Shown one piece after another: positions 30,302 to 62,573 of a stretch of DNA of 64,000 bases. Each line of letters starts with the position of its first letter. Positions within the stretch are counted from its first letter, which is position 1. The stretch spans positions 459,261 to 523,260 of the forward strand of contig JACKBI010000001.1 in assembly GCA_020634615.1 (NCBI GenBank). Direction: 5' to 3'. The notes below the pieces were generated by a model. It made no database searches. It was not told the origin of the DNA and saw only the letters and a program-made list of their open reading frames with translations. The position numbers and the translations under genes were made by a program. Origin of the DNA: Anaerolineales bacterium (GTDB lineage: Bacteria; Chloroflexota; Anaerolineae; JAAEKA01).

Positions 30302-30314
30302 TGTGAAACCGTTG

Positions 30315-44149: not shown

Positions 44150-44910
44150 TCCTCGTCGCCCTCGTCCTCGTCGTCTTCGTCGTCCTCCCAGTCCGCGTAT
44201 TGCGGTGGTGCTTCGCCGATCGCTTCCACGATACGCGGATATTCGACGCCTGGCTCACCCTCGTCGTTGATCTTGTGTACTTTCACCTCGAACCGCCACT
44301 CATCGCCGTAATCGAACAGATACATGAATGACTGGCCAGGAACAAGTTCCAGCGAAGCCACAGTGGCTTCACGCGCATCGCCCTGGATGTCCTCATCGTC
44401 ATCGAACATGCCTTCCAGCATGCCTTCGGGCAGCATTCCCATCAACGAGTCGGCGTTCTTGAGCATCATGTCGGCCATCAATGCAGGGATGCCGGTCTGC
44501 TCGGACATCAGTTTCACCATCTGCCCGCGCAGCTCAGCGTTGGTGCTGATCATGCTGAGCATCTCCTCAAACGACTGCGGAGGTGGTGTGTCGCCCAGCG
44601 ACTTGCGCAGGGCTTCAGCAGCCTCAGCATCGATCTCAGCTTCGAAGTCGTCATACTCTTCGTCGGGATCGATGGTCTCGGTCTCATCAGGGGAATCGAC
44701 TTCGAAGGCATCTTCCGGCAGTGAATATTCGCTGGAGCGATCCCAGGCTTTGCCACTCATAAAGAACGAGTAGAGGTGGTCCCCGTCAAAGTCGAACGCT
44801 TCCTGGATCGCCCAGTGCAGGTCATCGAGGGTCTGGCCCTCGGCGACCTCGATCTTGCGCCATACGCGTCCGGTGCCGGGAATGCTGACGTGGAAGGTGT
44901 AGGTTTTCAT
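44137..44910 (-). CDS. pRiA4b ORF-3-like (PF07929-like) protein with a long acidic insert and tail
   Basis: N-terminal YTFHVSIPGTGRVWRKIEVAEGQTLDDLHWAIQEAFDFDGDHLYSFF and C-terminal LVPGQSFMYLFDYGDEWRFEVKVHKI fit the split PRiA4_ORF3 fold. Poly-acidic C-terminus. Confidence 0.45.
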   Translation of the reverse strand: MKTYTFHVSIPGTGRVWRKIEVAEGQTLDDLHWAIQEAFDFDGDHLYSFFMSGKAWDRSSEYSLPEDAFEVDSPDETETIDPDEEYDDFEAEIDAEAAEALRKSLGDTPPPQSFEEMLSMISTNAELRGQMVKLMSEQTGIPALMADMMLKNADSLMGMLPEGMLEGMFDDDEDIQGDAREATVASLELVPGQSFMYLFDYGDEWRFEVKVHKINDEGEPGVEYPRIVEAIGEAPPQYADWEDDEDDEDEGDEEWDD

Positions 44911-45004
44911 CGCGTTCCTCGTGTATGTGAATCAAAGAGACGAGACACGTCTCCCATGAGATGTCTCGCCTCCTGTTATACTGAATTTGACGCGCTGGTC
45001 AAAC

Positions 45005-45850
45005 TTACCGCTCGATGGGAACTCCCACCAGATTGCCCCACTCGGTCCAGCTCCCGTCGTAGTTGCGCACGTTGGGGTAGCCCAGCAGGTAGGTCAACAC
45101 GAACCAGGTGTGGCTGGAGCGCTCGCCAATGCGGCAGTAGGCCACGACGTTGTCATCGTGATGCAAGCCCTGCTCCTCTTCATAGATCGCGCGCAGCTCG
45201 TCGGCCGACTTGAAGGTGCCATCGGCGTTGGCAGCCCGACTCCAGGGAACGCTCTTCGCGCCGGGGATGTGCCCGCCGCGCATCGCGCCTTCCTGCGGAT
45301 AGTTGGGCATGTGCAGCATCTCGCCGCTGTACTCGCCCGGCGAACGGACATCCACCAGCGGCTGGCCGGCCAGCACGTGCGCCATGACCTGATCACGGAA
45401 GGCGCGGATCTTGTAATCGGCGCGCGCCTGGGCATGGTAGGAAGCAGCGGGGTAGCTGGGCACGTCCTTGACCATGGGACGCCCTTCGGCTTCCCATTTG
45501 GCGCGCCCACCGTCCATCACCTTGGCGTTGACATGGCCGAAGAGGTTGAACACCCAGAACGCATAGCAAGCCCACCAGTTGTTTTTATCGCCGTAGAACA
45601 CGACCGTGGTGTCGTTGCCGATGCCGTTTGCCGACAACAGCGCTTCGAACTTCTCGCGTGTCAGGTAGTCTCGTCGGACGGCGTCGTTGAGATCCTTCTG
45701 CCAGTCGATCTGCACCGCGCCGGGGATGTGCCCAATGTCATACAGTAAGATGTCTTCGTTGGACTCAACGATACGAACCGACGGATCCTTCAGGTGTTCG
45801 GCGACCCAATCGGTCGTCACCAGCACCTCGGGATGAACGTAACCCTTCAT
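45005..45850 (-). CDS. sseA: thiosulfate/3-mercaptopyruvate sulfurtransferase (tandem rhodanese domains)
   Basis: Two rhodanese modules with the catalytic [11 protein letters not shown] motif. 281 aa. Confidence 0.7.
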
Positions 45851-45874
45851 TCTTACACTCCCTTTTCTCGGAAA

Positions 45875-46004
45875 GTAATCGGTAATCAGTGATCAGTAAC
45901 AAGCAATCTGTGATCAGCAACCGGACATCCACAATCTCCGTCAGCTTGCCGCTAATCACTGGCTACTGGTTACTGATCACCGATCACTGATTACCGATCA
46001 CCGG
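45875..46004. repeat. heptamer tandem arrays in inverted orientation (GTAATCG GTAATCA GTGATCA GTAACAA… and …GTTACTG ATCACCG ATCACTG ATTACCG ATCACCG) flanking a ~45 bp spacer
   Basis: 7-bp periodicity and arm complementarity seen directly, between the rhodanese gene start and the sufD stop. Confidence 0.5.
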
Positions 46005-46005
46005 T

Positions 46006-47327
46006 CTACATGTGGATCTTGCGCGCGATGACTTGTTCGAGCTTGCGCCGCACGCCTTCGACCGGCACGCGGTTGAGCACTTCCTCGAAGAAGCCGGTGA
46101 CGATCATCTGCTCGGCCTGGAACTTGCTCAGCCCGCGCGCCATAAGATAGAAAAGGTACTCCGGTTCGATCTTGCTGATAGTCGCGCCGTGCGTACAGCG
46201 CACGTCGTCAGCTTCGATCTCCAAACCGGGGATGCTGTCGGCGCGCGCACGCCGGTCCAAAACCAGATTGTTGTTCTTCTGGTATGCATCGGTCTTCTGG
46301 GCATGCGGCCAGACCTTGATGCTCCCTGAGTAAACCGAGCGAGCACGGTCGCGCAGCGCGCCCTTGAAGAGCAGGTCGCTGGTGCAGTGGTCGGCGAAGT
46401 GGTTCTGCATGGTGTGGTGGTCGATGTGCTGGCGCCCGCTGGGGAAGTAAAGTCCCAGCAACTCGCCGTGCCCCCCGCGCTCCAGCATCTGCATCTCCAG
46501 GTTGATCTTGCTGAGCTTGCTGCCCCAGGAGCTGAGAATCCAGGTCAACTGGGCGTCGCGCAACATCTGCGCCTGCTGGGTGCTGAAGTGCCACGTGTTG
46601 GTATTCCAGTCCTGACCGTGCATGTAGCGCACGACTGCACCGGGGCGGGCGAAGATCTCGACCACGCCGCTGTGGAAAGCTGCGCCGTTGTCCTTGCTGA
46701 TCAGGTCATCGACGTAGGTGACCTGGCTGTTTTCTTCGGCGATGATGAGCGTGTGCGCAAAGTCTGCCACACCGCTGCTGATCGAGGTGACGCCATGAAA
46801 TGGCAGTTCGATCTGCACATTGCGCGGCACGTAGAGCACCGTCCGCCGGTGACCGGCGCGGCATGCAGTGCAGTGAACTTGTTCACGTCCACCGCGACAT
46901 TGTCAGTCATGAAATGCTTCTGGATCAGCTCAGGATGCTGACGAATGGCGGTGTCGAGGTCGGTGAAGATGACACCCTTGGCCGTCAGCTCGTTGTCGAT
47001 ACCGTGGTAGCGCACGGCGCCGTCTTCGGTCACCAGCGCCGCGGCAGCGTTGATCGACTCAAGCTCTTCCCGCAGCGCAGGCGTCAGATCAGCGACATCA
47101 CCGCGCATGTCGTCAGCGGTGGCTGCCAGCTTGAATTTGGCGATGTCCAGCCCGGTCAGCCGGGTGCGCCGCCATTCCTCTTCCTCGCCGGTCGGCCACG
47201 GAATCTCTTCAAAGAAACGCCAGGCGCGATGACGAAGGTCAGTGAACCAGATCGGTTCCTGTTTCTGCTGCGAGAGCGAGCCAACGGCCGCCGCGCTGTC
47301 CAGTCCGATCTCACTCTTAGTTAGCAC
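46006..47327 (-). pseudogene. sufD: Fe-S cluster assembly protein SufD, disrupted by a frameshift near 46845
   Basis: Two overlapping ORF fragments (47327-46701 and 46839-46006) both match SufD. The junction …ALHAAPVTGG / VLYVPRNVQIELPFHG needs 1 nt restored at GGCGGAC-GGTG. Confidence 0.6.
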
Positions 47328-47361
47328 TTGTAGCAGTCATATCTGTATCTCAAATGGGCAA

Positions 47362-47466
47362 GGAATGGAAGTGGACGGGTAGACAGGTGAACAAGTAAAC
47401 AGGTTTACAGGTCGCTTCTCGGTTTCCCTGTCTACCTGTTTACTTCCGTTTCCTTGTTTCCTTTTT
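47362..47466. repeat. octamer tandem arrays in inverted orientation (GGTAGACA GGTGAACA AGTAAACA GGTTTACA … CCTGTCTA CCTGTTTA CTTCCGTT TCCTTGTT)
   Basis: 8-bp periodicity seen directly, in the sufB-sufD intergenic spacer. Confidence 0.45.
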
Positions 47467-47472
47467 CCAATA

Positions 47473-48877
47473 CTACCTTCCATCTGCTGGCTGGATCAGC
47501 CGGTTCATCTCGACCGCGTATTCCATGGGCAGTTCCTTGACCATCGGCTCGATGAAGCCGCTGACGATCATGGTGGCCGCCTCTTCCTCGTTCAGGCCGC
47601 AGCTCATCAGGTAGAAGATCTGCTCTTCGTTGACCTTGCTGACGCTGGCCTCGTGGCCGACTTGCACGTCCTGCTCGTCGATCTCGATATACGGGTAGGT
47701 GTCGGAGCGGCTGTGGTCATCCAGCAGCAGCGCGTCGCAGACGACCGTCGACTTGGAGCCGGTGGCGCCCTTGGCGACCTTCAGCAGGCCGCGATAGCTG
47801 GCCCGCCCGCCGTTCTTGCTGATCGACTTGGAATGATCTTGGACGAGGTGTCCAGGCGCGCCGTGCACCACCTTGCCGCCGGCGTCCGGGTCTGGCCCTG
47901 GCCGGCGAACGCGATGGACAGGATCTCACCATGGGCGCGGCCCCATCATGTAGACTGCCGGGTACTTCATGGTCACCTTGGGCCCAGATTGGCATCGATC
48001 CACTCCATGGTCGCGTCCTCATAGGCCATGGCGCGCGGTCACCAGATTGTTGTAAACGTTGTTGGACCAGTTCTGAATGGTCGAGTAGCAGCAGCGCAAC
48101 CGCCTTTTTGACCACGATCTCGACGACGGCGCTGTGCAGCGAGTCGCTGGCGTAGATCGGCGCGGTGCAGCCTTCGACGTAGTGGACGTTGGCGCCCTCT
48201 TCGACGATGATCAGCGTGCGCTCGAACTGGCCCATGTTTCTGGGCGTTGATGCGGAAGTAGGCCTGCAAGGGGGAATGTCAACCGTCACGCTTTCGGCAC
48301 GTAGACAGAAGCTGCCACCCGACCAGACGGCCGAATTCAGCGCTGCAAACTTGTTGTCTGACGGCGGGATGATCGAGCCAAAGTACTCGCGGAAGATGTC
48401 TTCATGTTCGCGCAGGCCACTGTCGGTGTCCAGGAAGATGACGCCCAGATTGGTCCACACTTCCTGCAGCGAGTGGTAAACCACTTCGGACTCGTACTGC
48501 GCCAACGCCGGCCAGGAAGTTGCGCTCCGCTTCGGGAATGCCCAGACGCTCAAAGGTGTTCTTCATGCTGTCTGGCATGTCATCCCAGCTCGTGCCAGCC
48601 TTTTCGGTGGGCTTGAGGTAATAGTAGATGTCGTCGAACTGGATCTCGCTCAGGTCAGCGCCCCACGTGGGCATTGGCTTGGACAAGAAGATGTCCAGCG
48701 AGCGGTGGCGAAGTCACGCATCCACTCCGGTTCATTCTTCATGACCGAAATCTGATCCACGATCTCGTGATCGAGACCCCTGCGCGACTTGAAGACGTAC
48801 TCCTCCGGCATGCTGAAGCCGTACATGTACTCGTCTTTTACGCCAGCCAGTGCTTCGCGGTCACTTGTTGTTGCCAT
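47473..48877 (-). pseudogene. sufB: Fe-S cluster assembly protein SufB, fragmented into at least 4 ORF pieces by multiple frameshifts
   Basis: Fragments carry the SufB N-terminus (…YGFSMPEEYVFKSRRGLDHEIVDQISVMKNEPEWM…), middle (…[29 protein letters not shown]…) and C-terminus (…DEQDVQVGHEASVSKVNEEQIFYLMSCG…), with nonsense stretches between them. Confidence 0.65.
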
Positions 48878-48938
48878 GGTGTTCTCCTATGGAATCAGGC
48901 CCGGTTTGTGCGGCGCCTGGATTACTCGTCGTGTGTCG

Positions 48939-49047
48939 CCAGTAAACAGTGAACAGTGTCCAGTAAACAGTTTTCAGAAGATCTCTTGCAAAACAGTGAC
49001 CTCTGGTTCCGGTCACCGATTACTGATCACTGGTTACCGATTACCGT
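48939..49047. repeat. heptamer tandem arrays (CAGTAAA CAGTGAA CAGTGTC CAGTAAA CAGTTTT … TCACCG ATTACTG ATCACTG GTTACCG ATTACCG) in the sufC-sufB spacer
   Basis: Same repeat family as 45875-46004 (shared TTACCGATTAC / TGATCAC modules). Confidence 0.5.
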
Positions 49048-49048
49048 C

Positions 49049-49874
49049 CTACGCCGCCACCAGCTCCGGCTCGCCAAACTCATCGCGCACCGACTGGTAG
49101 CCCTGGGCTTCCAGTTCGTGAGCAACTTCGATACCGCCGCTCTTGACGATGCGGCCGTTGTAGAAGACGTGGACGAAGTGCGGCTGCACATAGTTCAGGA
49201 TCTGCTGATAATGGGTGATCAGCAGAATGCCGAGGTTCGGTCCGGCCAGCTTGTTGACCCCCATCAGAGACAACACGCAGCGCGTCGGATGTCCAGCCCG
49301 CTGTCGGTCTCGTCCATGATGGCGATCTTGGCTGAAGCATGGCCATCTGCGGGGATCTCGACCCGTTTCTTCTCCGCCGCCGCTGAACCCTTCGTTCAGG
49401 TAGCGCTTGGCGAAGTCGCGATCGACGTGGAACTCGTCCATCTTGTCCAGCAGCTCGCGGCGAAAATCGCGCATCGGCATCAAATTGGAACCGATGACAC
49501 CCTGGCGGCCATCGCCGTCGGCAGGCTTGTCGGTGAAACCGCGCATGTTGCTGACAGCAGTGCGCAGGAAGTTGGCCATGCTGACGCCAGGGACGGCGAC
49601 AGGGTACTGGAACGCCAGAAACAGGCCCTTGCGCGCCCGCTCGTTAGGCTCCATATCCAGAACGCTTTCACCGTCCAGCAGAATATCGCCCTCGGTCACT
49701 GTGTAATGGGGTGACCCATGATAGCGTAGGACAGGGTACTCTTGCCGGAACCATTGGGACCCATCAATGCGTGGATCTCGCCCTGGCGGACGGTCAGATT
49801 GACGCCCTTCAACACTTCCTTCCGCCGTCGTTGACCGCCACGTGAAGGTTCTGAATAACTAGCTCACTCGTCAT
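49049..49874 (-). pseudogene. sufC: Fe-S cluster assembly ATPase SufC with several frameshifts
   Basis: The true N-terminus [18 protein letters not shown]… is out of frame with Walker [12 protein letters not shown], with …[13 protein letters not shown]… and with MAMLQP…DALRVVS. Each shift falls at a C- or G-homopolymer. Confidence 0.65.
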
Positions 49875-49939
49875 GGAAACGTATCTCCTTGAAAAAATTT
49901 TGTCTTGCTTACCTGGTAGATTGAAATTTGGTAGATCGG

Positions 49940-50627
49940 TTACGTGGCAGGCTGGAAGCTCGTCGCGTGGCGATTGCCGCCTGCCGCAGGAATTGCGTTG
50001 ACCACGAACTGACAACTGTTGTGGCCGTCGTGGATGCAGTTGCCCAATGTCACATCCGCTCCCAACACCTGGGAGAACGTGTCACGCTCCATCTCGCATA
50101 CGTCACGGTGCACAGAAGACAGGTCGTGATACGGGCAGTTGTACTCGTGCAGGATCATGACCCCGTTGGCATCCTCGATGTCGGCGCGGATGCCGCGGCG
50201 ATCCAGCAGGACCGAAAGTTCGGGAATCCTGTCGCCCAGAGCAACGCCCTTGATCTGACGGCTGTACTGCATCGCCAGTTTGTCGCCCACCCGGCTCAGC
50301 AGGTAGCGCAGCTTGGCCGTGCCCTCGGTCTCCAGCAGCTCGTGGATCAGGTCCAGCGCCAGCTCATCGGAATAGCAGGCAAACAGGCTCTGCGACCGTT
50401 CGGTGAGCTTGTAGACGTTGCGTGGGCGGCCAACGCCCTGTCGCTCTCTGGTCATGATAACCAGGCCTTCGGCCGACAGGCTGGCCAGTTGCTGGCACAG
50501 CGGTCGCGGTGACGCCCAACATGTCTTCCAGGTCTTTGATGCCAGCGGTTGTGTTGCGCAGGAGGTATTCGAGAATTTGCCCAGCGGGGGTTGAACTGTT
50601 TTGAATGCCCTGAGTCGCCATGGTCAC
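49940..50627 (-). pseudogene. sufR: SufR-like ArsR-family HTH regulator, frameshifted
   Basis: N-terminal HTH fragment (…AGQILEYLLRNTTAGIKDLEDMLGVTATAV…) and C-terminal fragment (IMTRERQGVGRPRNVYKLTE… with CPYHD…C…C Cys ligands) lie in different frames. Confidence 0.5.
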
Positions 50628-50667
50628 TTACTCTTTCAATAAATCGTCGTTCCGGCTAACAAGTGGA

Positions 50668-50715
50668 AGTATATGCCAGCAAAGTAATTTTGTCAAATTA
50701 ATCTGCGAAAATTAC
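50668..50715 (-). promoter_or_regulatory. near-consensus sigma70-type promoter for the sufR operon (-35 TTGACA, 17-bp spacer, -10 TATACT on the minus strand), overlapped by the inverted repeat GTAATTTT-N16-AAAATTAC
   Basis: Hexamers and spacing read from the sequence. The inverted repeat at 50684-50715 overlaps the -35. Confidence 0.45.
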
Positions 50716-51181
50716 CAATATGCCAACCACCCCAACGAAGTCCGGCTTTGCAGCAAAGCCGGACTTCTGGCTGTTACGCGTGCCGTTCATGAAAACAGAA
50801 GCTCACCTTTGCCGAAAAAGTCGAGCTTCTTATAAAACGTTGCCGGACACGTCCAACTCAAAGCGCCGAACCTGTGGGCAGATCCGGCGTTTCTTCAGTC
50901 AATCTCGTGTGACGTTAGCTGATGCGCATCCGCTTCACATCCACGAAGCCGGCCAGCACATTTCGCCCAGAGCTTTTCAAAAGTCGAGATCAAGCTCATC
51001 TCGGTCACCCGGAACGGGTCTGACGAACAACCTGCGCAGGCATTCGAGGCAGGTGAAGGGTCTCTCATGGAGTACGCGAGATGTCTCGCTGCGCAATGTG
51101 AACGTGCTTGTTGCCTTATCGAGCCGCTCAACATGACACATGCGGGACTTATGAGAAGCCCTGCATTTCGCCTTGCTGAGA

Positions 51182-51210
51182 TTGACCGCGTCTATCTCCG
51201 GTGGTATAGT
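51182..51210 (+). promoter_or_regulatory. sigma70-type promoter (TTGACC, 17-bp spacer, TATAGT) for the gene starting at 51245
   Basis: Hexamers and spacing seen directly. GGAG RBS 7 nt before the ATG. Confidence 0.45.
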
Positions 51211-51244
51211 AGTTCTTCGCACTACCATACCGTCTGGAGTCAAC

Positions 51245-52396
51245 ATGCCCGAAAACACCGCGATGGACACAATGCGTGATGAATACGAAATTGACACCTT
51301 GATCGAGCAGGCGACGCCGATATTGCGCCGCTACATCCTGACGCTGGAACAGGAAAACGCGCGCCTGCGGCAGGAACTGATGGATGCGCAAGGCACGGCG
51401 GCACGGCGGGAGCGCGCCGCGTTGGCCCGCGAAAGCCGCGAGCCGTCGGCCAACACCAGTGTGCCCACGCCGCGTTACGGCGACGATGTGATGGTGATCA
51501 CCGTCACTGCTCAGGGGCTGTGCAAGCGCACACCAGTCAACGAATACTCGGCACAGCGGCGGGGCGGCGTGGGCGTCTTCGACATCCAGACCAGCCGTGA
51601 TGACCAGGTGGCGCATGTGCTGGTCGCGCGCGAGGCCGCTGCCCTGCTGGTATTGAGCAGCCGCGGGCGCGCGTTTCGCGTCCCGGTCGAGACGTTGCCG
51701 CTGACAGAGATCCGCGGCCGTGGCGCCTCATTGCCCGAGCGTCTGATGTTCACCGGCGGTGAGACCATTGGCGCGCTGTTGGCGCTGGACGAGGAGCAGG
51801 ATGATCGCCCCAACGTACTGATCGCCACAGCCAGCGGCTTGCTGCGCTCGTTCCATCGCAACTACGTCGGTCCCCGCCTGCAACCCGGCACGTTGTTGGT
51901 TGAACCGGCCCGGGGCGGCTCACCGGCCGCGGCAACCCTGTCCCATGGCGGCGGCGACGTGCTGGTCGCGCTGCGCAGCGGCGTCGCCTACCGCTTCGCC
52001 GAGCAGCTGATTCGCCGGGAGGGGGTGCGCGGCATCCAGGTCCGCCCGGACGACGCAGTGGTCGGTCTGGCCGTCCTCGCGGCCGATGGCAGCGATGCCA
52101 TCTTCCTGGCCAGCGGCGAAGGACTGGGCACCCGCCGCGGCGATGATACTTTCTCCGCCAACAAATCGCCGGGCGGGCAAGGCAAGGTCATCATGAAGAC
52201 CGACGCACTGGCCGGACTTGCTGCCGTCACAGAGCAGAGTGAAGTGTTCTGCGTCAGCGGCCTTGGCAAGATCATCCGTTTTGCCGTGGCTGAAGTGCCG
52301 CCCAAGGCCGGCAATGTTCAAGGTGTCAACATCATGGATTGCCGCGGCGACCAACTGACCGCCATCACTGTCAGCACGCCACCTGCCCAGGATTGA
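51245..52396 (+). CDS. stand-alone DNA gyrase A C-terminal-domain (beta-pinwheel) like protein with an N-terminal coiled coil
   Basis: GyrA-box-like QRRGGVGV, then repeated blades (…GRGASLPE…, …PGGQGKVIMKT…, …GNVQGVNIM…). ~80 aa charged helical N-terminus (…LTLEQENARLRQELMDAQ…). Confidence 0.5.
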   Translation: MPENTAMDTMRDEYEIDTLIEQATPILRRYILTLEQENARLRQELMDAQGTAARRERAALARESREPSANTSVPTPRYGDDVMVITVTAQGLCKRTPVNEYSAQRRGGVGVFDIQTSRDDQVAHVLVAREAAALLVLSSRGRAFRVPVETLPLTEIRGRGASLPERLMFTGGETIGALLALDEEQDDRPNVLIATASGLLRSFHRNYVGPRLQPGTLLVEPARGGSPAAATLSHGGGDVLVALRSGVAYRFAEQLIRREGVRGIQVRPDDAVVGLAVLAADGSDAIFLASGEGLGTRRGDDTFSANKSPGGQGKVIMKTDALAGLAAVTEQSEVFCVSGLGKIIRFAVAEVPPKAGNVQGVNIMDCRGDQLTAITVSTPPAQD

Positions 52397-53196
52397 TGCC
52401 CATGTCTGCTACACCACACAGCGCGTTGGTACGTCCACCTGACCTCTCGTTTGTCGATGCGTTGGGACAGGTCGAGGGCGCACCCGCGATCGATTTCGAA
52501 TTGGCGTTGGCGCAACACCGCCTGTATGTGGCGGCGCTGGAGGCAGCGGGTCTTTCGGTTACGGTATTGCCGCCCGCAGAGGGCTTGCCCGATGCTTGCT
52601 TTGTGCAGGATGTCGCGCTGGTGCTGCCGGAACTGGTCTTGCTGGCCCGTCCGGCCATGCCGTCGCGGCAGGCGGAGATTGCCGCGATTCGAGCGTATTT
52701 GCCTCCCGACCGGCCGGTGGCAGCGGTCGAGGAGCCGGGCACGCTGGAGTGGGGCGACGTGTTGCGCATCGGCAACACGCTGTATGTTGGTCTGTCGGAG
52801 CGCACCAATGCGGCCGGTGCAGAGCAAGTGCGCGCTGCCGTGACGCCGCTGGGGATGGACGTTGAAACGGTTCCCGTGCCGGCCGGCTTGCATCTGCTCA
52901 GCGGGCTAAACTACCTGGGACGCTCGCCGCGCAACGCCGACGGCCCCGGGGTCGTTCTGGCGTGGCCGGCATACCGCGACCTGCCGATACTGGCCGGGCT
53001 GGATGTGATCGTCGTGCCGGAGAGCGAAGGCCCGGCCGCCAACGTACTGGCCCTTGGTGAAACGGTGCTCGTTCCTGCAGTGTACCCGCGCACCGCGGCC
53101 GAGCTTTGGCATCGCGGCTGGCGCGTGTTGTCGGTGCCCATCAGCGAGTTTGCCAAAGCGGATGGCGGCCTGACCTGTCTCAGCCTGCTGATGTGA
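52396..53196 (+). CDS. N(G),N(G)-dimethylarginine dimethylaminohydrolase / amidinotransferase-superfamily protein
   Basis: Start overlaps the upstream stop (TGATG). DDAH-like N-terminus …ALVRPPDLSFVDAL… and catalytic-Cys-type C-terminus …DGGLTCLSLLM. Confidence 0.6.
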   Translation: MPMSATPHSALVRPPDLSFVDALGQVEGAPAIDFELALAQHRLYVAALEAAGLSVTVLPPAEGLPDACFVQDVALVLPELVLLARPAMPSRQAEIAAIRAYLPPDRPVAAVEEPGTLEWGDVLRIGNTLYVGLSERTNAAGAEQVRAAVTPLGMDVETVPVPAGLHLLSGLNYLGRSPRNADGPGVVLAWPAYRDLPILAGLDVIVVPESEGPAANVLALGETVLVPAVYPRTAAELWHRGWRVLSVPISEFAKADGGLTCLSLLM

Positions 53197-53302
53197 AAGG
53201 CTGATTGGCCGTTTGAAGTCGGTTGTTCCTTCGCACTCGACCTGCTCTGACCAACCAGCTTTCGACACACCGACCTGAAACCTTGATACCATTGGAGGAG
53301 CT

Positions 53303-53944
53303 ATGCCGCGCGATCCATTGATCGATCGCAGCCAGGCCGCGCGTCTGGCCTTTTTTGAACAGGAACGGGATCTGTTTCACGATCTGGTGACCCACGGGCA
53401 GTCGCCAGAGGCGCTGCTGATCGCGTGCAGCGATTCGCGCATCGTCGGCGCCGGGCTGCTGGGGACACTGCCAGGTGAGGTCTTCGTGGTGCGGACGGTA
53501 GGCGCTGTTGTGCCGCCCTATGGCATCGGCCAACGATCGGTAGGCGCGGCGCTGGAGTTTGCGCTCGACAAACTGCGCGTGCGTCATGTGATCGTCTGCG
53601 GCCACACCGACTGCGGCGCGATCGAGGCGCTGGACGCGACCGTGGACATGCAGAAAACGCCGAACCTGGCACTGTGGCTGGAGAATCTGCGGCCGGCCAA
53701 GACCTCGGTCGACGCGCACCAGACATTTGCTGACCCCTATGCGCGCCAGCTTGCCATCCTCCAACAGAGCGTGCTGCTGCAGATGCGCAATCTCGAAACT
53801 TATCCGGTCGTACAATACGCCCTGAAGAATCAGACTGTCAGCCTCCACGGCTGGGTATACAGCCTGGAAAGCGGGCGCTTGAGCTACTACGATTCGGACG
53901 CAGGACGGTTCGTCGTGGAAGACGCTCAAGACAGGCAACCGTAA
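53303..53944 (+). CDS. can: beta-class carbonic anhydrase
   Basis: CSDSRIV … HTDCGAI zinc-ligand motifs. ~213 aa. Confidence 0.75.
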   Translation: MPRDPLIDRSQAARLAFFEQERDLFHDLVTHGQSPEALLIACSDSRIVGAGLLGTLPGEVFVVRTVGAVVPPYGIGQRSVGAALEFALDKLRVRHVIVCGHTDCGAIEALDATVDMQKTPNLALWLENLRPAKTSVDAHQTFADPYARQLAILQQSVLLQMRNLETYPVVQYALKNQTVSLHGWVYSLESGRLSYYDSDAGRFVVEDAQDRQP

Positions 53945-54263
53945 GCAAGCGCAAGACGCATCCGGGCGCCCTGCGCCTGCCGGACGGACGGAATGGGGTG
54001 GCGTAGCCAGCGGGCCGACTTTCCGGTAAGGGAAGCGTCGGCGCGCTGGCTTGCAGACTGGGAAAATCGTATTGAGGAAATGCGGCCTGCTCGCTGGATA
54101 CCCTGTCTGCGGGGGCTATGACAGTGTAGTGCGTACGCGCAGAAGTGCGCACCGACGCACTGGCATTTCCTCATTTGACCGTTTTTCTGACCCTCTTTTC
54201 ACCAAATTCTCCAATTTATCGCGTAGTCTTCGTGAAATTTCTATCAGGGGTACCAAAGTACTA

Positions 54264-54293
54264 TTGACCGCGCCTGTTCTTCCCCACTAAAAT
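54264..54293 (+). promoter_or_regulatory. candidate sigma70-type promoter (TTGACC, 17-18 bp spacer, TAAAAT) in the AT-rich 700-bp leader upstream of the giant-protein genes
   Basis: Hexamers seen directly. No experimental support. Confidence 0.3.
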
Positions 54294-54414
54294 AGGTTTG
54301 TTAGACCTTCGAATCGCCATCAACGCAGCCAGATTGTTTCCAATTTCAAATCGTTTTTCGTCCAGCAACCGGATCAGGTTTTCGATCAGGGGTGCAGTAA
54401 AAGGACAGGCTTTT

Positions 54415-54657
54415 ATGGATCGCTTGGGATCAGCGCACCTTTTTCCTACCACGTCCCGCCGCCAGATGGCGCAGAACGAGGTGCTGCTGGCTGCCCGGGT
54501 GACATGTTGGGCTGGCGCGCGCTGCCAGTGTCGGGGCGGCGCCATTGGCGGACGGACGTTTAGTCGCAATGCAGTCGTCTATGGGAACGGCGAGGCCAAG
54601 GCAATCAGCTCCTGGCCTCGCTTTTTCGATGCCAGGGAGCAAGAGGAGTTTTCATGA
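54415..54657 (+). CDS. small Cys-containing ORF (80 aa) translationally coupled (ATGA) to the giant gene; possible leader peptide
   Basis: High-GC coding-like codon usage. The stop overlaps the ATG at 54654. Contains CWAGARCQC. Confidence 0.25.
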   Translation: MDRLGSAHLFPTTSRRQMAQNEVLLAARVTCWAGARCQCRGGAIGGRTFSRNAVVYGNGEAKAISSWPRFFDAREQEEFS

Positions 54658-57600
54658 ACCGCGTTAAACAGGCAATCTTCAAGACATGTCCGAAATCGGG
54701 TAAGGTCGTGGGCCTGCGCCGGCCAGAAGGTTGGCGCCGGATATTCATTCCGCTGATTGGTTTTGCGGCGCTGGTGTGGTTTCTCGTGCGAGTGGTTCCC
54801 AAACCGAGCCGGGCTGCCTATCCCTGCCAGCGGGTTGCGATGCCACTGGCGTCCGGGTTCGTTCTCTGGCTTGCAGGCATGGCCGGGGCAACCGTTGCGT
54901 TTGGAAAGGCGCGCAATCGCTTCCAGCAGGCGCGGTTCGCGACCGGCGCTCTGGCAGTGGTGGTCGCTGTCGTGGGTGTTGGTTGGGGCGTATTGACGTT
55001 GCAGGCGCCGGCAGCGGCTGAAACGGTTGCGTATACGGCCCATCCGGCCAACCAACCCATCGGTGTTGCCAAGGGATTGGCGCCCGGTCGTGTGGTCTGG
55101 GTCCATGACCCTGATCTGACCGACTGGGCCGGACCGGGAACCGGCGAGCGGTGGTGGCAGCACGTCAGCCAGTCGGTTGCGAATCAGGTGATGTCGCAGG
55201 CGCTGCGCAGCTATGCCAACACTACGTCCGACGCCGCGGCCTGGGATGCAATCTTCCGCAGTTACAACGGCGGCGCTCCCTACCAATCCAACCAGAAAAT
55301 CGCCATCAAGATCAATCTGACGACTTCGAACGCTGGCTCAGGCACTGCCAACATCGACAGCAACTACAACTGGGTTCCAGGCGGCGGTCTGAACTACGAC
55401 GCGATCGGTGAGTCGCCGCAGTTGATGCACGCGCTGCTGGATCAACTCGTGAACAAGGCCGGTGTGCCACAGGCCAACATCACTATCGGTGATCCGACCG
55501 GTCTGTGGATCAACGAGTTGTACGTGCCGCTGCACAACGATTTCCCCAACGTGGTTTACCTGGACAACTATGGTCAGCAGGGGCGAACTCGGGCCTCGTT
55601 CAGCTCAGTTCCGATGTACTGGAGCACTTCTGAGGCCAACGGCAAGACGCAGGACTATGTGCCGAACTATTTTGCCCAGGCTGACTATATGATCAATCTG
55701 GCGATCCTGAAGACCCACGATCGCAACGGCATTACTCTGACCGCCAAGAATCACTTCGGCTCGATGCTGCGAACGCCGGTGGCGCAACTGCGCGGCGTGA
55801 GCGGCAACTGGCTGGAGTTGCACCACTTGCTGCCCAGCGCGCCCTCGGCCAGTGAACCCAAGGTGCCGACCATGGGCAACTACCGGCCTCTGGTGGATCT
55901 CAACGGCAACCGAAACCTGGGCGGCAAGACTCTTCTCTATATGGTAGATGGCATCTTTGGCGGCAAGAACTGGAACTCCACGCCGTACACCTGGGCGATG
56001 ACTCCGTTCAACGGCGACTGGCCGTCCAGCCTCTTCCTTTCCATGGACCAGGTGGCCATCGACTCGGTGGGTTTCGACTTCCTGAGCCAGCAATGGCCTG
56101 ATCAGGCGCTGGTCAATGAGGGTGTGCAGGACTATCTGCACGAGATGGCGCTGGCCAATAACCCACCTTCGGGCACATGTTACGATCCGGAACACGATCA
56201 GACGTGCCAGCAGAGCATGGGCGTCCACGAACACTGGAACAACCCGATTGACAAGCAGTATACCCGCAATCTCGGCACGGGCAACGGCATCGAATTGATG
56301 TACATCAATCCGTTGACACCGACGCCTACACCAACGGCAGTGCCGCCGACTGCCACCAATACACCGGTGCCACCCACGGCCACCAACACAGCAGTGCCGC
56401 CGACCAACACGCCAGTGCCACCGACGGCCACCAACACAGCCGTGCCGCCAACCAATACACCGGTGCCGCCGACGGCCACCAACACAGCGGTGCCGCCGAC
56501 CAACACGCCAGTGCCACCGACAGCTACCAACACAGCAGTGCCGCCGACCAACACGCCAGTGCCACCAACGGCTACCAACACAGCAGTGCCGCCAACCAAT
56601 ACACCGGTGCCACCGACGGCCACCAACACAGCAGTGCCGCCGACCAATACGCCGGTGCCGCCGACGAGCACACCGGTGCCACCCACCGCGACGCCGACAC
56701 AATCGGTCTGCGGCGTACAGACCGTGCTGTTCGTTGGTTCCACCAATCCGCTGCCGGCCCGCGATCAGGTCCTGGTGAATCGTCTTACCGGGCAGGGCTA
56801 CGCGGTGGTTGTGCGCAGTGAGAGCCAGGCGGTGTCGTCCGATGCCAGCGGCAAGGCGCTGGTGATCATCTCGGATTCGGTCACTTCTGGCAATGTCAAC
56901 ATCAAGTTCCGCGATGTGGCGGTGCCTGTGATGACCTGGGAACCCGCTTTGCTGGACGACATGATGATGACCGGGACAGCCTACGGAACCAACAGCGGCG
57001 ATGCATCGAACCAGACGCAACTGGTCGTTAACAGCGGCCATCCGCTGGCAGCCGGCCTCAGTGGAACGGTGACGACCAGCAACGCCGCGCAGATGTACTT
57101 CTGGGGCGTACCCTCGGCCAGCGCTGATATCATCGCGACGATCGTCGGTCAGTCGGGACATGCGGCAATCTTTGCCTACGAGCCGGGCGACGCGATGATC
57201 GGCTTGACGGCGCCGGCCCGCCGGCTTGGCTATTACAATGGCTACGGCGCCGACTTTACCGCCGCCGGCTGGGGGCTGTGGGACGCCGCGGTGACATGGA
57301 TGGTTAACTGCCAGGCGCCGACCGCTACTCCGATCCCGACTAATACACCTGTGCCGCCGACAGCGACTCCGACCTACACGCCGACGCGGACACCAACCGC
57401 CACGCCGGTGCCGCCCACTGCGACGCCGATCCCGACCAATACACCGGTGCCGCCGACAGCCACTCCGACCTACACGCCAACGCGGACACCAACCAATACG
57501 CCGGTGCCGCCCACTGCGACGCCGATCCCGACCAATACGCCAGTGCCACCGACAGCGACTCCGACCTACACGCCGACGCGGACACCAACCGCCACGCCGG

Positions 57601-59216
57601 TGCCGCCAACTGCCACGCCGCTTCCAACTAACACCCCGGTGCCGCCAACAGCGACTCCGCTTCCAACCAACACACCAGTTCCGCCAACAGCGACTCCGGT
57701 GACCGTTGATGGTGTCGTGCTGCGCACCGATCTTGCGCCGGTAATCGACGGAACAATCGACCCGGTCTGGAGCGGCGCCAACCAGTATCCCATCCAGAAC
57801 GTGATCATCGGCAGTGCTGTGCCGGCGGCTGATCTTTCAGCTTCCTACCGGGCGCTATACGACGCCACCAACCTCTACCTGCTGGTGACCGTCAGCGATG
57901 AGACACTGATCAACGACAGCGGAACTTCCTGGTATTTCGATGACGGCGTCGAGCTATTCGTGGACGGCGATCACAGCCAGGGCGCCAGCTATGATGCCAA
58001 CGACTTCCAGTTTGGTGTGCGCTGGAGCGATGGCAACACGATCATTGCCGGCGCGAACTCAGCGCCGGTGCCCACTGGCGCGGTGGCCAGCCTGGCTTCT
58101 GCGCCCGGCGGTTACCGGCTCGAGATGCGGCTGCCTCTGTCGGGGCTGTCCATCAACCCGACGGCTGGCTACCAGTTTGGACTGGAAGTGCAGGTCAACG
58201 ATGACGATGACGGTGGAGATCGGGACACCAAGATCTCCTGGCACAGCCTGGATGACAACACCTGGATGTATCCAAGCCAGTTCGGAAGCGTAGCGCTCAG
58301 CAGCAGTACGGTACCAACACCGGTGCCGCCAACTGCCACCAACACACCAGTGCCGCCGACAGCAACACCTGTGCCGCCGACAGCGACGCCAGTCCCGCCG
58401 ACAGCGACGCCAGTGCCGCCGACACCCACACCGACTACACCTCCTCCCACAACCAACATGATGTACGTCAGTTCGACCACGGCTGGCAATGTTGGCGGGG
58501 TGGCGTTCAACGACGAGGATATCCTGGCATACAACAAGACGACCGGAGCATGGAGCATGCTGTGGGACGGCTCAGACGTTGGCATCACTGCCGATGTGAT
58601 CGCTTACTCGGTGCGGACTGACAACTCCATTCTGATGAGCTTCGCCAGCGCCATCACTGTATCCGGCCTCGGTACCGTGGATGACTCCGACATCGTGCGC
58701 TTCGTGCCCACGTCGTTGGGAACAAACACGGCTGGCAGCTTTGAGTTCTACTTCGACGGTTCCGACGTTGGACTGTCCAACAGCAGTGAGGACATCGACG
58801 CCATCACCTTCACGGCTGACGGTAAGCTGGTCATCAGCACGGCCGGATCGTACAGCGTGCCGGGTGTGTCCGGCGCCGATGAGGACTTGCTGGTCTTCAC
58901 TGCTTCCCAGCTTGGCCAGACTACCAGCGGAACCTGGGCGATGTACTTCGACGGATCTGACGTTGGCCTGAGCCAGTCATCGTCTGAGGATGTCAACGGC
59001 GCCTGGTTGGACGTGACCACTGGCAAGCTCTATCTGACGACCGTCGGAGCTTTTTCGGTGACCGGCGTGAGCGGTGACGGCGCAGATATCTTCATCTGCA
59101 CGCCGACATCCCTGGGATCGAACACCGCCTGCACGTACGGCCCTGGTCTCTATTGGGACGGTTCGGCCAACGGCTTCGCCGGCGAGATAGTTGATGGGTT
59201 TACCATCGTCCCATAA
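54654..59216 (+). CDS. giant cell-surface multidomain protein (1520 aa): N-terminal 3-TM anchor, DUF362-like domain, PT-repeat linker, class-I-glutamine-amidotransferase/ThuA-like domain, PT linker, CBM9-like domain, PT linker, C-terminal YFDGSDVGL-repeat domain
   Basis: N-terminal 550 aa is ~65% identical to the product of 59301..62375. Motifs AIKINLTT, AILKTHDRNGITLTAKNHFGS. CBM9-like block (…LYLLVTVSDETL…FDDGVELFVDGDH…). 4 internal repeats of (F/Y)xDGSDVGL. Confidence 0.65.
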   Translation: MNRVKQAIFKTCPKSGKVVGLRRPEGWRRIFIPLIGFAALVWFLVRVVPKPSRAAYPCQRVAMPLASGFVLWLAGMAGATVAFGKARNRFQQARFATGALAVVVAVVGVGWGVLTLQAPAAAETVAYTAHPANQPIGVAKGLAPGRVVWVHDPDLTDWAGPGTGERWWQHVSQSVANQVMSQALRSYANTTSDAAAWDAIFRSYNGGAPYQSNQKIAIKINLTTSNAGSGTANIDSNYNWVPGGGLNYDAIGESPQLMHALLDQLVNKAGVPQANITIGDPTGLWINELYVPLHNDFPNVVYLDNYGQQGRTRASFSSVPMYWSTSEANGKTQDYVPNYFAQADYMINLAILKTHDRNGITLTAKNHFGSMLRTPVAQLRGVSGNWLELHHLLPSAPSASEPKVPTMGNYRPLVDLNGNRNLGGKTLLYMVDGIFGGKNWNSTPYTWAMTPFNGDWPSSLFLSMDQVAIDSVGFDFLSQQWPDQALVNEGVQDYLHEMALANNPPSGTCYDPEHDQTCQQSMGVHEHWNNPIDKQYTRNLGTGNGIELMYINPLTPTPTPTAVPPTATNTPVPPTATNTAVPPTNTPVPPTATNTAVPPTNTPVPPTATNTAVPPTNTPVPPTATNTAVPPTNTPVPPTATNTAVPPTNTPVPPTATNTAVPPTNTPVPPTSTPVPPTATPTQSVCGVQTVLFVGSTNPLPARDQVLVNRLTGQGYAVVVRSESQAVSSDASGKALVIISDSVTSGNVNIKFRDVAVPVMTWEPALLDDMMMTGTAYGTNSGDASNQTQLVVNSGHPLAAGLSGTVTTSNAAQMYFWGVPSASADIIATIVGQSGHAAIFAYEPGDAMIGLTAPARRLGYYNGYGADFTAAGWGLWDAAVTWMVNCQAPTATPIPTNTPVPPTATPTYTPTRTPTATPVPPTATPIPTNTPVPPTATPTYTPTRTPTNTPVPPTATPIPTNTPVPPTATPTYTPTRTPTATPVPPTATPLPTNTPVPPTATPLPTNTPVPPTATPVTVDGVVLRTDLAPVIDGTIDPVWSGANQYPIQNVIIGSAVPAADLSASYRALYDATNLYLLVTVSDETLINDSGTSWYFDDGVELFVDGDHSQGASYDANDFQFGVRWSDGNTIIAGANSAPVPTGAVASLASAPGGYRLEMRLPLSGLSINPTAGYQFGLEVQVNDDDDGGDRDTKISWHSLDDNTWMYPSQFGSVALSSSTVPTPVPPTATNTPVPPTATPVPPTATPVPPTATPVPPTPTPTTPPPTTNMMYVSSTTAGNVGGVAFNDEDILAYNKTTGAWSMLWDGSDVGITADVIAYSVRTDNSILMSFASAITVSGLGTVDDSDIVRFVPTSLGTNTAGSFEFYFDGSDVGLSNSSEDIDAITFTADGKLVISTAGSYSVPGVSGADEDLLVFTASQLGQTTSGTWAMYFDGSDVGLSQSSSEDVNGAWLDVTTGKLYLTTVGAFSVTGVSGDGADIFICTPTSLGSNTACTYGPGLYWDGSANGFAGEIVDGFTIVP
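56344..56690 (+). repeat. in-frame 48-bp tandem repeat (about 6.5 units) encoding TNTPVPPTATNTAVPP
   Basis: Near-identical DNA units seen directly inside the giant gene. Confidence 0.6.
57321..57700 (+). repeat. in-frame 96-bp tandem repeat (about 3.5 units) encoding [32 protein letters not shown]
   Basis: Seen directly. A second Pro/Thr linker of the giant gene. Confidence 0.55.
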
Positions 59217-59227
59217 GCGACAATTTC

Positions 59228-59264
59228 CCGGTCCCGGATGGCCGATATGGCCATCCGGGACCGG
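59228..59264 (+). terminator. perfect 16-bp palindromic hairpin (CCGGTCCCGGATGGCC-GATAT-GGCCATCCGGGACCGG) between the two paralogous giant genes
   Basis: Seen directly, 12 bp after the stop of the first gene. No U-tract. Confidence 0.45.
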
Positions 59265-59300
59265 CTAACTGGCGATGAAGATCGCCTTGGAAGGTGAACG

Positions 59301-62300
59301 ATGAACGAGATCAAGAACAAGGTGTTCAAGGTCTGTCCCAAGACGGGAAGGGTTATTGCTGTGCGCCGGCCAGAGGGTTGGCGCCGGGTTTTTCTGCCGC
59401 TTGTGGGATTTCTGGCGCTGGTATGGTTTCTGATCCGCGTCGTGCCAAAGCCTGCCCGCGCGGCCTATCCCTGCCAGCGCGTTGCAGCGCCACTGGCGTC
59501 AGGGTTCGTCCTGTGGCTGGCAGGCATGGCCGGTGCGTCAGTTGCCTTCAGGCACGCACGTGGCCGCTTCCAGCAAGCCCGCTACCTGACCGGCGCGCTG
59601 GCGGTGTTGATCGCACTGATCGGTGTTGGCTGGGCAGCCGCAACCCTGCCACAAGGCGCGCAGGCCGGGCAGGCCCCCGAACATATCGAGTATACGCCAC
59701 ATCCAGCCAACCAGCCCATCGGCGTCGCCAAAGGCCTGTCACCGGGCCGCGTAGCCTGGTCCTATGATCCTCCTGTCACCGTTTGGAACGGTACCAGCAC
59801 GACAGCCGGCCAGCGCTGGTATGACCAGATCAGCCAGCCGAAGGCCAATGAAATGATGGAGTGGGCGCTGACCGGTTACGCTGGCGCGGGTACCAGCAGC
59901 TCAGCCTGGGATGCGATCTTCCGCTATTTCAACGGCGGCGCGCCCTACCAGGCCGGCGAAAAGGTGTTCATCAAGATCAACCTGACCACGTCCTATTCCA
60001 ACAGTTGTGCCGACAGCAACTACAACTGGACCATCAGCTGCATTGGCTCATCGCCGACAAGCTGGACCTACATCGGGCAATCGCCGCAACTGATGATCGC
60101 CTTATTGAATCAGCTGGTCAACGTCGCGGGGGTCGCCCAGGCCAACATCACTATCGGCGACTCGACCGGCCTGTGGGTCAACGAGCTGTACAACCCGGTC
60201 CATACTGCATTTCCCAACGTTCACTACATGGACGCGCGCGGCACGCTGGGTCGCACAGCGGCCGCCAGAAGCAACGTGCCGCTTTACTGGAGCACCAGCG
60301 AGGCCAACGGCAAAAACCAGGACTACATCCTGCAAGCCATTGCCGACGCGAAGTACGTGATCGACTTTGCCATCCTCAAGGTGCATGAACGCAACGGCAT
60401 TACAGTCACTGCCAAGAACCACTTCGGCTCGCTCAGCGGCGGCAACTCCGATGAGCGCAAACCGCCCACGACCAACTACTACAATATTCATCTGCGGCTG
60501 CCGCTGGAGACCGATTCCAACGCCTGGCCGCAGCGCGGCCAGATGGCGCAATACCGGCCGCTGGTAGACCTCAACGGCCACCAGCAGATGGGCGGCAAAA
60601 CGCTGCTGTACATGATAGACGGCATCTATGGCGGCAAGGGATGGAATGGTGTGCCGTCCAAGTGGGCCATGGCGCCATTCAACGGCCAGTGGCCGGCCAG
60701 CCTGTTCCTGTCCATGGACCAGGTGGCCATCGACTCGGTGGCCTTCGACTTCCTCAGCCAGCAGTGGCCCGATCTGGCCCTGGCCAACGAAGGCGTGCAG
60801 GACTACATGCACGAAATGGCGCTGGCCGACAACCCGCCATCTGGAACATTCTATGACCCAGAGCACGATGGTGTGCGTATGACCAGCCAGGGCGTGCATG
60901 AACACTGGAACAACCCGGTAGACAAGCAGTACACGCGCAATCTGGGGACCGGCAACGGCATCGAGTTGGTCAGAGTTCAGCAGTCTGAAGCATGCGGCCA
61001 ACAGACGGTGCTCTTCATCGGCAGTACAAACCCGCTGGAGAATCGCGATCAGATCCTTGTCAACCACCTTGCCACATCCGGTTACGGGATTACTGTGCGC
61101 AGCCAAACCCAGGCCACTGCTGCCGATGCCCTCGACGCTGACCTGATCATCATCTCAGATTCGGTCGATTCTACCAATGTCAACACGAAGTTTCGCGACT
61201 TAAGTATCCCCGTGATGGTTTGGGAGTCCTCGCTATTTGATGACATGAACATGACGGGCACTGTGAGCAATACGGACTACGGTAGCCAGGCCAGCCAGAC
61301 ACAGGTCAATATCGTGAGTTCCGGGCATCCACTGGCGGCTGGTCTGCCAGCCGGGCTGGTGACGACAACCGCCGCATCCCAGTCCTACCTGTGGGGCAAG
61401 CCGTCCGCCACGGCAGCCGTCGCCGCCCGCATCGCCGGCTCCCCCGACCACGCCGCAATCTTCGGATATGACGCAGGCGATTCTATGGTAGGCATGAAAG
61501 CGCCGGCACGCCGGGTAGGCTTCTTCAACGGCTACGGTTCCGACTTCACAGCAAACGGCTGGGCGCTCTACGACGCGGCTGTCAAATGGGCGCTGGAATG
61601 CGGATCGGTCAGCGGCGGCTTCTCGGTGGTCAACGCCGACACCGGTGAGGTCGTACGATCCCTCAACAACGGCGACACGCTGGAACTGACGACGTTGCCG
61701 GCCAACATCGCTTTCCGGGCCAACACCGATCCGGCGGTCACCGGCAGTGTCGTCTTCAACTTCGACGGAAGCTCGTCCACCGACAACAGCGCGCCTTACC
61801 AGTACGGCGCGGTGCCGCTAGAATGGACTCCGGACGTTGGACAACATACGATCAGCGCCCAACCCTTCTCAGCAGCTGACGGCGGCGGAACGGGAGGCGA
61901 GGCCCTGAGCCTCAGCTTCACTGTCACTAACACGCCGCTGGCCGTCGCGTTGGCTGGCTTCGATGCAACACCGGCCGGGGATCACGTGCTTGTCACGTGG
62001 GAAACCGTGTCGGAGATCGACAATGCCGGCTTCAACCTCTATCGCAGCGCGACTGATGTCGCACCAGAGGAACTTCTGGTCAACATGCCCAGCCAGGCGC
62101 CCGGCAGTGCTCAGGGTGCGCACTACACCTATCAAGACTTCGCCGTTCAGAACGGCCAGAGTTGGTACTACTGGCTGGAAGCCGTCGACCTGCAAGGCGG
62201 CACGTCGTTGCACGGTCCGGTGAACGCGACCGTACAAACGCCGACGGCCGTCACGATCCGTGACCTGCAGGCCGGCGTTGAGCCGCAACCCACTGGCGGA

Positions 62301-62375: not shown

Positions 62376-62573
62376 GCCTGCCGATTCAGCCCATCGGTGT
62401 CGGGTGAGCAGCAGTCGCCGGAGCATGACTCCGGCGACTGCGCGCCTCGTGCGACCTGGAAATTGATCTTGTGTTTGACGACGTCTGTGCGCGATAATCC
62501 CGACAATCGCCAGCCGGTTTCCTGACATTGATTTTCGGACAGGATAACAATTGATATTTACTGTGGAGGACTC

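Follow-up and report, generated by a model that had tools for sequence, protein, structure and literature searches.

In cyanobacteria, the sufR gene is divergent from sufBCDS, and the SufR-controlled suf operon places a helix-turn-helix (HTH) regulator with a C-terminal four-cysteine region beside sufB, sufC and sufD. A similar association is found in the 64-kb stretch of DNA analyzed here (the window), where the regulator aligns to positions 5-207 of the 208 positions of the SufR_cyano profile and its translation exhibits a CX12CX19CX7C cysteine spacing. Unlike in the cyanobacterial operon, the genes are co-directional, in the order sufR-sufC-sufB-sufD, and the cluster is devoid of sufS. As pointed out by a previous sequence-only reading, all four genes, located on the minus strand, are split into several ORF fragments. 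Adjacent genes which each carry several frameshifts are also encountered among the pseudogenes of Mycobacterium leprae and insect symbionts. The features of the locus are the following.

45005..45850, minus strand: rhodanese/sulfurtransferase, intact; exact protein on 78 contigs
46006..47340, minus strand: sufD (intact reference 443 aa; TIGR01981)
46845..50497, no strand: error-dense patch, from alignment to 7-10 independent same-population contigs
47463..48877, minus strand: sufB (intact reference 471 aa; TIGR01980)
49049..49874, minus strand: sufC (intact reference 274 aa; TIGR01978)
49940..50621, minus strand: SufR-like HTH regulator (intact reference 227 aa; best NCBIfam match TIGR02702)

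The reference proteins of the same population belong to the expected families. For the 274-aa SufC of the intact reference copy L082, the TIGR01978 score is 336 bits (cutoff 212.8), while SufB reaches 714.8 bits against TIGR01980 (cutoff 346.4) and covers profile positions 2-448 of 448. Similarly, SufD scores 271.4 bits against NCBIfam TIGR01981 (cutoff 222), and its 281.1 bits against the sufB profile remain under the sufB cutoff of 346.4. The regulator matches TIGR02702 (SufR_cyano) over its full length with 89.4 bits (E = 2.4e-25), below the cutoff of 178.8; it is best called SufR-like, and NCBI names the intact protein only helix-turn-helix transcriptional regulator. The rhodanese, which adjoins an intact suf operon in every locus fetched, served as the anchor for fetching same-population contigs. 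It is intact, as described earlier; the other neighbor is a GyrA-C-terminal-like protein and not, as in that description, an ABC ATPase. Scans of the window for tRNAs and Rfam families returned nothing relevant.

The window is part of an 896,788-bp contig of HK-STAS-CHLO-17, a Caldilineales MAG from activated sludge of Shatin, Hong Kong, and its proteins correspond to MCB9129688-98 on this contig. The published description of this MAG gives 896,788 bp as the length of the largest contig, with a GC content of 0.6176 and an assignment to the order Caldilineales (PMC8518188 supplementary table). It was assembled with Flye on Nanopore reads (86.7% accuracy) and subsequently, for each bin, with Unicycler v0.4.8 using Illumina reads "to bridge the gaps". 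Error-prone long reads are therefore part of the source assembly, as expected for a long-read artefact. In the public record, NCBI keeps a 270-aa 3' fragment of SufD (MCB9129690.1) and lists a 171-aa SufR remnant as a hypothetical protein (H6647_02030), both in agreement with the broken ORFs of the window. An artificial alteration of the window was consequently rejected, as NCBI proteins from the source contig show the same broken ORFs.

Across 7-10 independent contigs obtained from different samples, the window shares 99.3-99.9% identity, the values for the regions flanking the damage being 99.4-99.9%, and all of these same-population contigs encode intact SufR (227 aa), SufC (274 aa), SufB (471 aa) and SufD (443 aa). 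On record, the intact proteins are found on 88 (SufR), 73 (SufC), 59 (SufB) and 49 (SufD) contigs. The 171-aa SufR and 270-aa SufD pieces are on record solely from the source contig, and an exact protein look-up of the 277-aa sufD fragment of the window returned no copy on record elsewhere. In public protein records, the disabled allele was thus not found in independent samples. The project comprises two or more MAGs or strains that are close relatives (MCB91296xx and MCB91425xx), and within this accession batch a sibling MAG possesses intact SufR and SufB (MCB9142569 and MCB9142571).

Alignment to the same-population contigs delimited an error-dense patch of 3,653 bp (46845-50497), with one edge in the middle of sufD (46845) and the other inside sufR (50497). 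The patch edges disregard gene boundaries, and the damage does not extend over the whole 46006-50627 region, as previously assumed. The patch contains 29 indel events by comparison with L082 (approximately 1 per 126 bp) and about 30 window-private substitutions, which amounts to roughly 1.6% private differences. Over the approximately 50 kb compared, 27 of the 28 window-private indel sites are inside the patch, the sole exception being an intergenic site at 8497 (two references). If the 29 events were placed uniformly, the probability that all of them fall in the patch would be approximately 1e-33. References covered 55 of the 64 kb, and the statement that this is the only patch is valid for that part; the remaining 9 kb (1-1200, 17323-19757 and 29795-35003) have an ORF structure without obvious breaks. 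For coverage of the 29.8-35 kb stretch, an exact look-up of the 676-aa protein encoded at 33298-35328 found none on record.

By comparison with L082, 25 of the 29 indel events are frameshifting and located within coding sequences (1 in sufR, 7 in sufC, 15 in sufB and 2 in sufD). The sufR-like gene is interrupted by a 2-nt (GC) deletion at 50497 and carries a private Leu-to-Pro change at 50223, while the seven events in sufC are all single-base indels. In addition to its 15 frameshifting events, sufB contains one 3-nt insertion and has lost its stop codon (GGG TAA in the reference, GGA AAA in the window). In sufD, the frameshifts are an inserted T at 47332 and a missing G at 46845, along with an in-frame insertion of GCG at 47294.

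Miscalled homopolymers, as known from nanopore, 454 or Ion Torrent sequencing, were initially proposed to account for each of these shifts, over a patch of low coverage. As in such miscalls, the probability of an indel increases with run length: 3 of the 14 runs of at least 4 bases in the patch are miscalled (C5 to C4, G4 to G5 and A6 to A5), versus less than 1% of runs of 1-2 bases. Insertions and deletions are both present, as had been recognized, and the occurrence of over-calls as well as under-calls is in line with a flow-based or nanopore platform. Several individual calls were also accurate, namely those at 49712 (C5 to C4), 49332 (C3 to C2), 49263 (G4 to G5) and 49354 (an extra C). However, unlike in homopolymer miscalls, most events lie outside homopolymers: only 9 of the 29 are in reference runs of at least 2 bases, 20 being elsewhere, and substitutions and multi-base events (7 of 29) are numerous. 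GC/CG dinucleotide units are missing at 50497, 48503 and 47940, 3-nt duplications occur at 48053 and 47294, single non-run bases were lost at 49823 (A), 47982 (T), 47888 (T) and 47833 (C), and five insertions are unlike any adjacent base. Conversely, one T6 run and ten 4-base runs were called correctly. Two of the earlier reconstructions were wrong: in sufC, a lone A and not a G of a GGG run was lost at 49823, the true protein reading NDGEKEVLKGV, and in sufD the absent base is the G of GGG at 46845 and not a C. The effect of run length is thus real but minor, and the spectrum is that of a general noisy-long-read consensus (1-3 nt indels and substitutions). A model restricted to homopolymer errors is largely refuted and survives only as one component of this spectrum; as a complete explanation, it is improbable in the extreme. 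Programmed frameshifting or recoding was rejected as well, since 25 shifts occur in both directions without a common motif.

Substitutions are also concentrated in the patch. Using six references, 20 private substitutions were counted in the patch versus 2 in 17.2 kb of flanks. Among the 30 private substitution columns, 28 are without match in relatives at 82-89% nucleotide identity; these changes fall on positions that do not vary otherwise, and three Leu-to-Pro replacements as well as the sufB stop codon are among them. It could be envisioned that the assembler merged reads of co-occurring strains or paralogous suf operons into a mosaic combining spurious indels and mixed real alleles. The presence in the project of two or more MAGs or strains that are closely related is in line with such a consensus collapse, as are the 34 non-private substitution events of the patch, at which the references differ among themselves. 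Moreover, about half of the substitutions versus L082 are synonymous (19 synonymous and 15 non-synonymous), and for this reason a part of them are probably true strain polymorphisms rather than errors. Nevertheless, 28 of the 30 private substitutions do not correspond to any known allele, distant relatives included, a pattern which points to errors and not to borrowed alleles. In addition, two intact copies, when mixed, would yield 25 frameshifts only from noisy reads, and this scenario then amounts to a variant of an uncorrected long-read consensus; on its own, it is very unlikely. The lack of any matching relative for 28 of the 30 private substitutions, together with the inability of recombination to produce frameshifts, also led to the rejection of a patch recombined from a divergent strain.

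The possibility that the HK-STAS-CHLO-17 strain has genuinely lost SUF, through accumulated indels and with another Fe-S pathway encoded elsewhere, has to be weighed against the same data. Multiple frameshifts across the suf genes and the lost sufB stop codon are what pseudogenization would leave behind, and indel rates in real genomes also climb with homopolymer length, the trend observed here. Besides, the MAG is only 88% complete, which makes another Fe-S system conceivable. However, 1.6% of private change predicts dozens of synonymous private changes in the 17 kb flanks, where two were seen, and the density of damage (approximately 59 private events in 3.65 kb, versus 2 private substitutions in 17.2 kb of flanks) does not fit neutral flank divergence. 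Substitutions dominate natural mutation spectra, whereas the indel-to-substitution ratio in the patch is about 1:1. The damage ends in the middle of sufD, the 3' end of which (46006-46844, 839 bp) is free of errors, with 0 events observed versus 13.6 expected (P = 1.3e-6). Finally, the fragments originate from one contig, as opposed to 49-88 contigs for the intact proteins. Thus, unlike the decay known from Mycobacterium leprae or symbionts, the damage is found in a single assembly and has limits unrelated to the genes; it is far denser than flank divergence permits, and intact copies dominate the population. Genuine pseudogenization is therefore highly unlikely, and it is equally doubtful that the frameshifts are real in this strain following a localized mutation burst or a very recent relaxation of selection which destroyed SUF. 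If this were true, a free-living Caldilineales bacterium would have to assemble its Fe-S clusters by some other, unseen route or with a second set of suf genes located elsewhere in its genome.

Collectively, the intact population copies, the gene-blind patch edges, the hybrid source assembly and the repairability of the locus support the earlier view of low-quality sequence, and the broken suf genes are almost certainly a data-quality artefact and not the result of decay. Reverting the indels alone, using L082 as a reference, restores four full-length ORFs without internal stop, as had been anticipated for SufC, SufB, SufD and SufR, which makes correction preferable to an annotation as pseudogenes. 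After this indel-only repair, SufC of the window shares 98.9% protein identity with L082 (3 amino acid differences).

The patch very probably consists of a long-read consensus left uncorrected by short reads in a hybrid metagenome assembly. The bases of 46845-50497 would stem from long reads and would never have been corrected by short reads, the patch being a bridge of the Unicycler type at a point where the short-read graph was interrupted, or else a segment left unpolished. Long-read bridges and unpolished segments of this type are likewise sharply bounded and display percent-level, indel-rich errors within an otherwise short-read-accurate contig. In contrast to the typical bridge, the patch lies in single-copy genes across which short-read assemblies from other samples continue without difficulty. 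The approximately 1.6% of errors, composed of substitutions and of 1-3-nt indels which are enriched in longer homopolymers but mostly located elsewhere, would have broken the reading frames in the sufR-like gene, in sufC and sufB, and in the 5' third of sufD. The organism itself would possess undamaged genes for a normal SufR-like/SufC/SufB/SufD system. The initial proposal of homopolymer errors in a low-coverage region was thus right regarding the poor quality of the sequence; the broader error spectrum points to a long-read-only bridge or unpolished segment as the likely cause and not simply to low depth. Unicycler normally finishes with short-read polishing, and an extra reason for the missing short-read support must therefore be assumed. 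We infer that the short reads were possibly partitioned to the bin of a co-occurring sibling strain; alternatively, the highly conserved suf genes may have caused a tangle in the assembly graph.

Hybrid assemblies can conceal local patches of long-read quality in otherwise accurate contigs. In the public MAG HK-STAS-CHLO-17, a 3.65-kb unpolished patch deletes SufB and SufC from the proteome, leaves an annotation in which "SufD" is truncated and the regulator is listed as a "hypothetical protein", and lowers completeness estimates. False loss-of-SUF calls could thereby enter comparative or metabolic analyses. As far as the biology is concerned, the frameshifts are meaningless, the Fe-S assembly cluster of the organism being an ordinary SufR-like/SufCBD one.

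The suf locus lies upstream of a rhodanese gene, the two features being arranged as follows:

46006-50621, minus strand: four co-directional genes, encoding a SufR-like HTH regulator, sufC, sufB and sufD
45005-45850, minus strand: rhodanese gene, after sufD

All four suf-locus genes are broken into several ORF fragments in the window. The locus is placed in Caldilineales (Chloroflexota) by its relatives, two of which (L001 and L002) carry the same four genes, intact and in identical order, and the rhodanese protein is exactly matched on many independently assembled metagenome contigs. Six contigs of the same population, from different samples (L081-L086), share 99.35-99.44% identity with the window over 35005-55845, while a seventh (L097), aligned over 44659-64000, has the window's exact 1520-aa strain-variable protein. 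In all seven, SufR, SufC, SufB and SufD are 227, 274, 471 and 443 aa long, respectively. Intact SufC, SufB and SufD pass their NCBIfam equivalog cutoffs (336 bits vs 212.8, 714.8 vs 346.4 and 271.4 vs 222). The top NCBIfam match of the regulator is SufR_cyano, with a full-length alignment scoring 89.4 bits, under the 178.8 cutoff, and the protein is therefore named SufR-like. Judging from their study code, the comparison contigs labelled WANG18-1_SAMN083891xx probably derive from a 9-year series of Illumina HiSeq samples (PRJNA432264) taken at the plant that the window comes from.

The intact SufR-like protein (5225-5908 in L082, an intact reference copy; window 49940-50621) has C-terminal cysteines spaced CX12CX19CX7C, and its gene is co-directional with sufCBD in a cluster without sufS. 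Cyanobacterial SufR is encoded by a divergent sufR and has the spacing CX12CX13CX14C; both gene orientation and cysteine spacing thus differ here. The spacers after sufD (45874-46009), sufC (49011-49045) and sufB (47364-47450) are 7-nt periodic arrays that form long, imperfect hairpins, the longest arms measuring 44 nt. Two share the unit RGTRAYC (12 matches to a 3-unit pattern vs 0.04 expected), the sufB-sufD spacer has a GTAAACA/GGTAGAC-type unit, and unit number differs between strains (6-nt difference at 47445-47450). These arrays may represent a REP-like or terminator element family.

Compared with L082, the window shows 29 indel events, every one within 46845-50497, and 25 of them shift the frame in coding sequence (sufR 1, sufC 7, sufB 15, sufD 2). 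Sites were called private when the window disagreed with every covering reference among L081-L097, which cover 55 of the 64 kb, the 9 kb at 1-1200, 17323-19757 and 29795-35003 being without a same-population reference. The patch contains 27 private indel sites, each with 7-10 references behind it, vs a single one outside, at 8497, an intergenic position bordering a variable island (two references). Against six references, 20 private substitutions fall in the patch vs 2 in its 17.2 kb flanks. With seven close references, the patch has 30 private substitution columns, 28 of them absent even from relatives at 82-89% nucleotide identity; among these substitutions are three that turn Leu into Pro and those that abolish the sufB stop codon (GGG TAA to GGA AAA). 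About half of the patch substitutions vs L082 are synonymous, so some are probably true polymorphisms. The patch edges cut through genes, one lying within sufD, 839 bp before its stop, and the other 124 bp inside sufR; the clean 839 bp of sufD contain no event vs 13.6 expected at the patch rate (P = 1.3e-6).

Real decay of the suf genes is disfavoured on several grounds. A neutral 1.6% private change in the patch predicts dozens of private changes at flank synonymous sites, where 2 are seen; the indel:substitution ratio is about 1:1; the damage ends mid-gene; and the broken alleles occur in no other assembly, whereas intact alleles are found on 49-88 contigs. The confinement of the private indels, the intact population copies and the mid-gene edge bear out the proposal of the sequence-only reading that the sequence is bad rather than the genes decayed. 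Repair also succeeded: reverting the indels while keeping the substitutions gave four complete ORFs with no internal stops. Their proteins depart from the population copy at 14 amino-acid positions, the missing sufB stop counted among them.

That reading had further placed each shift at a homopolymer, which is correct only in part. A run-length effect does exist, since three of the 14 patch runs of at least 4 bases are miscalled (C5 to C4 at 49711, G4 to G5 at 49261, A6 to A5 at 48109) vs less than 1% of runs of 1-2 bases, one T6 run and ten 4-base runs being called correctly; however, only 9/29 events fall in reference runs of at least 2 bases. Eight affect single-base runs, among them the loss of a lone A at 49823, of a lone T at 47982 and 47888 and of a lone C at 47833; five are inserted bases without an identical neighbour, and seven are multi-base, with GC/CG unit losses (50497, 48503, 47940) and 3-nt duplications (48053, 47294). 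The earlier calls at 49712, 49354, 49332 and 49263 were correct; at 49823 the true protein reads NDGEKEVLKGV, not DGG(K)EVLKGV, and at 46845 the base concerned is a G of GGG instead of a C. The error profile is that of a noisy long-read consensus, which pure homopolymer miscalling does not fit.

In a related MAG (L012, CAVPPH010000002.1, MFD09779.bin.2.73), frames are broken at 6300-12900 in sufR, sufC, sufD, rhodanese and PRiA4-like genes, with indels scattered over all genes, unlike the single patch of the window; the 'contig_NNNN' form of its name suggests a long-read assembly.

Elsewhere in the window, a low-GC island (~8000-17300; GC 0.50 vs about 0.61 around) holds roughly ten ORFs without Pfam match save one GerE/sigma70_r4-like 84-aa protein, and its left border (8444-8499) is not the same in all population contigs. 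The tandem 20-nt x2 motif AAATCACAAACAATCATGAA occurs at 7973, 8735 and 14823, and in the latter two cases an ORF starts some 60-90 nt downstream. At 1520 aa, a giant DUF362/CBM9 protein (54654-59216; also 59301-62375) contains 48-, 96- and 144-nt Thr/Pro-rich tandem repeats (56340-56674, 57316-57698); it measures 1440, 1472, 1520 or 1552 aa among population contigs, some of which split the region differently. An 848-aa protein without Pfam match (26048-28594), adjoining an iron-dependent repressor gene, carries Thr/Ala/Pro-rich tandem repeats of 24, 54 and 102 nt at 27512-28128; its exact sequence occurs on only 2 other contigs.

The source MAG, HK-STAS-CHLO-17, comprises 24 contigs and 5,492,373 bp (largest 896,788 bp, GC 0.6176) and was assigned to Caldilineales (Liu et al., 2021, supplementary table, PMC8518188). 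Nanopore reads of 86.7% mean accuracy were assembled with Flye, and each bin was then re-assembled with Unicycler v0.4.8 from per-bin long and short read clusters 'to bridge the gaps' (Liu et al., 2021, PMC8518188). The suf frameshifts very likely stem from long-read consensus, an origin we infer, that short reads never corrected. Such a patch would be either an unpolished segment or a bridge spanning a gap in the short-read graph; short reads may have failed there because they were partitioned to a sibling bin that co-occurs, or because the graph was tangled in the highly conserved suf genes.

In NCBI, the window proteins are MCB9129688-MCB9129698 (locus tags H6647_*, contig of 896,788 bp), and the deposited record carries the frameshifts: the 171-aa 'hypothetical protein H6647_02030' (MCB9129693.1) is the window ORF 49940-50455, and the 270-aa 'Fe-S cluster assembly protein SufD' (MCB9129690.1) is the clean 3' fragment (46006-46839). 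Exact-sequence look-up of intact SufB and SufC gave no source-MAG accession (MCB91296xx) among the matches listed, which suggests that this MAG is without a full-length SufB or SufC product; a sibling MAG of the same accession batch has SufR and SufB intact. As a consequence of the patch, the SufD and 'hypothetical protein' labels on these remnants are annotation errors in the source MAG. The broken suf operon is a real observation, yet an assembly artefact and not a real biological feature.
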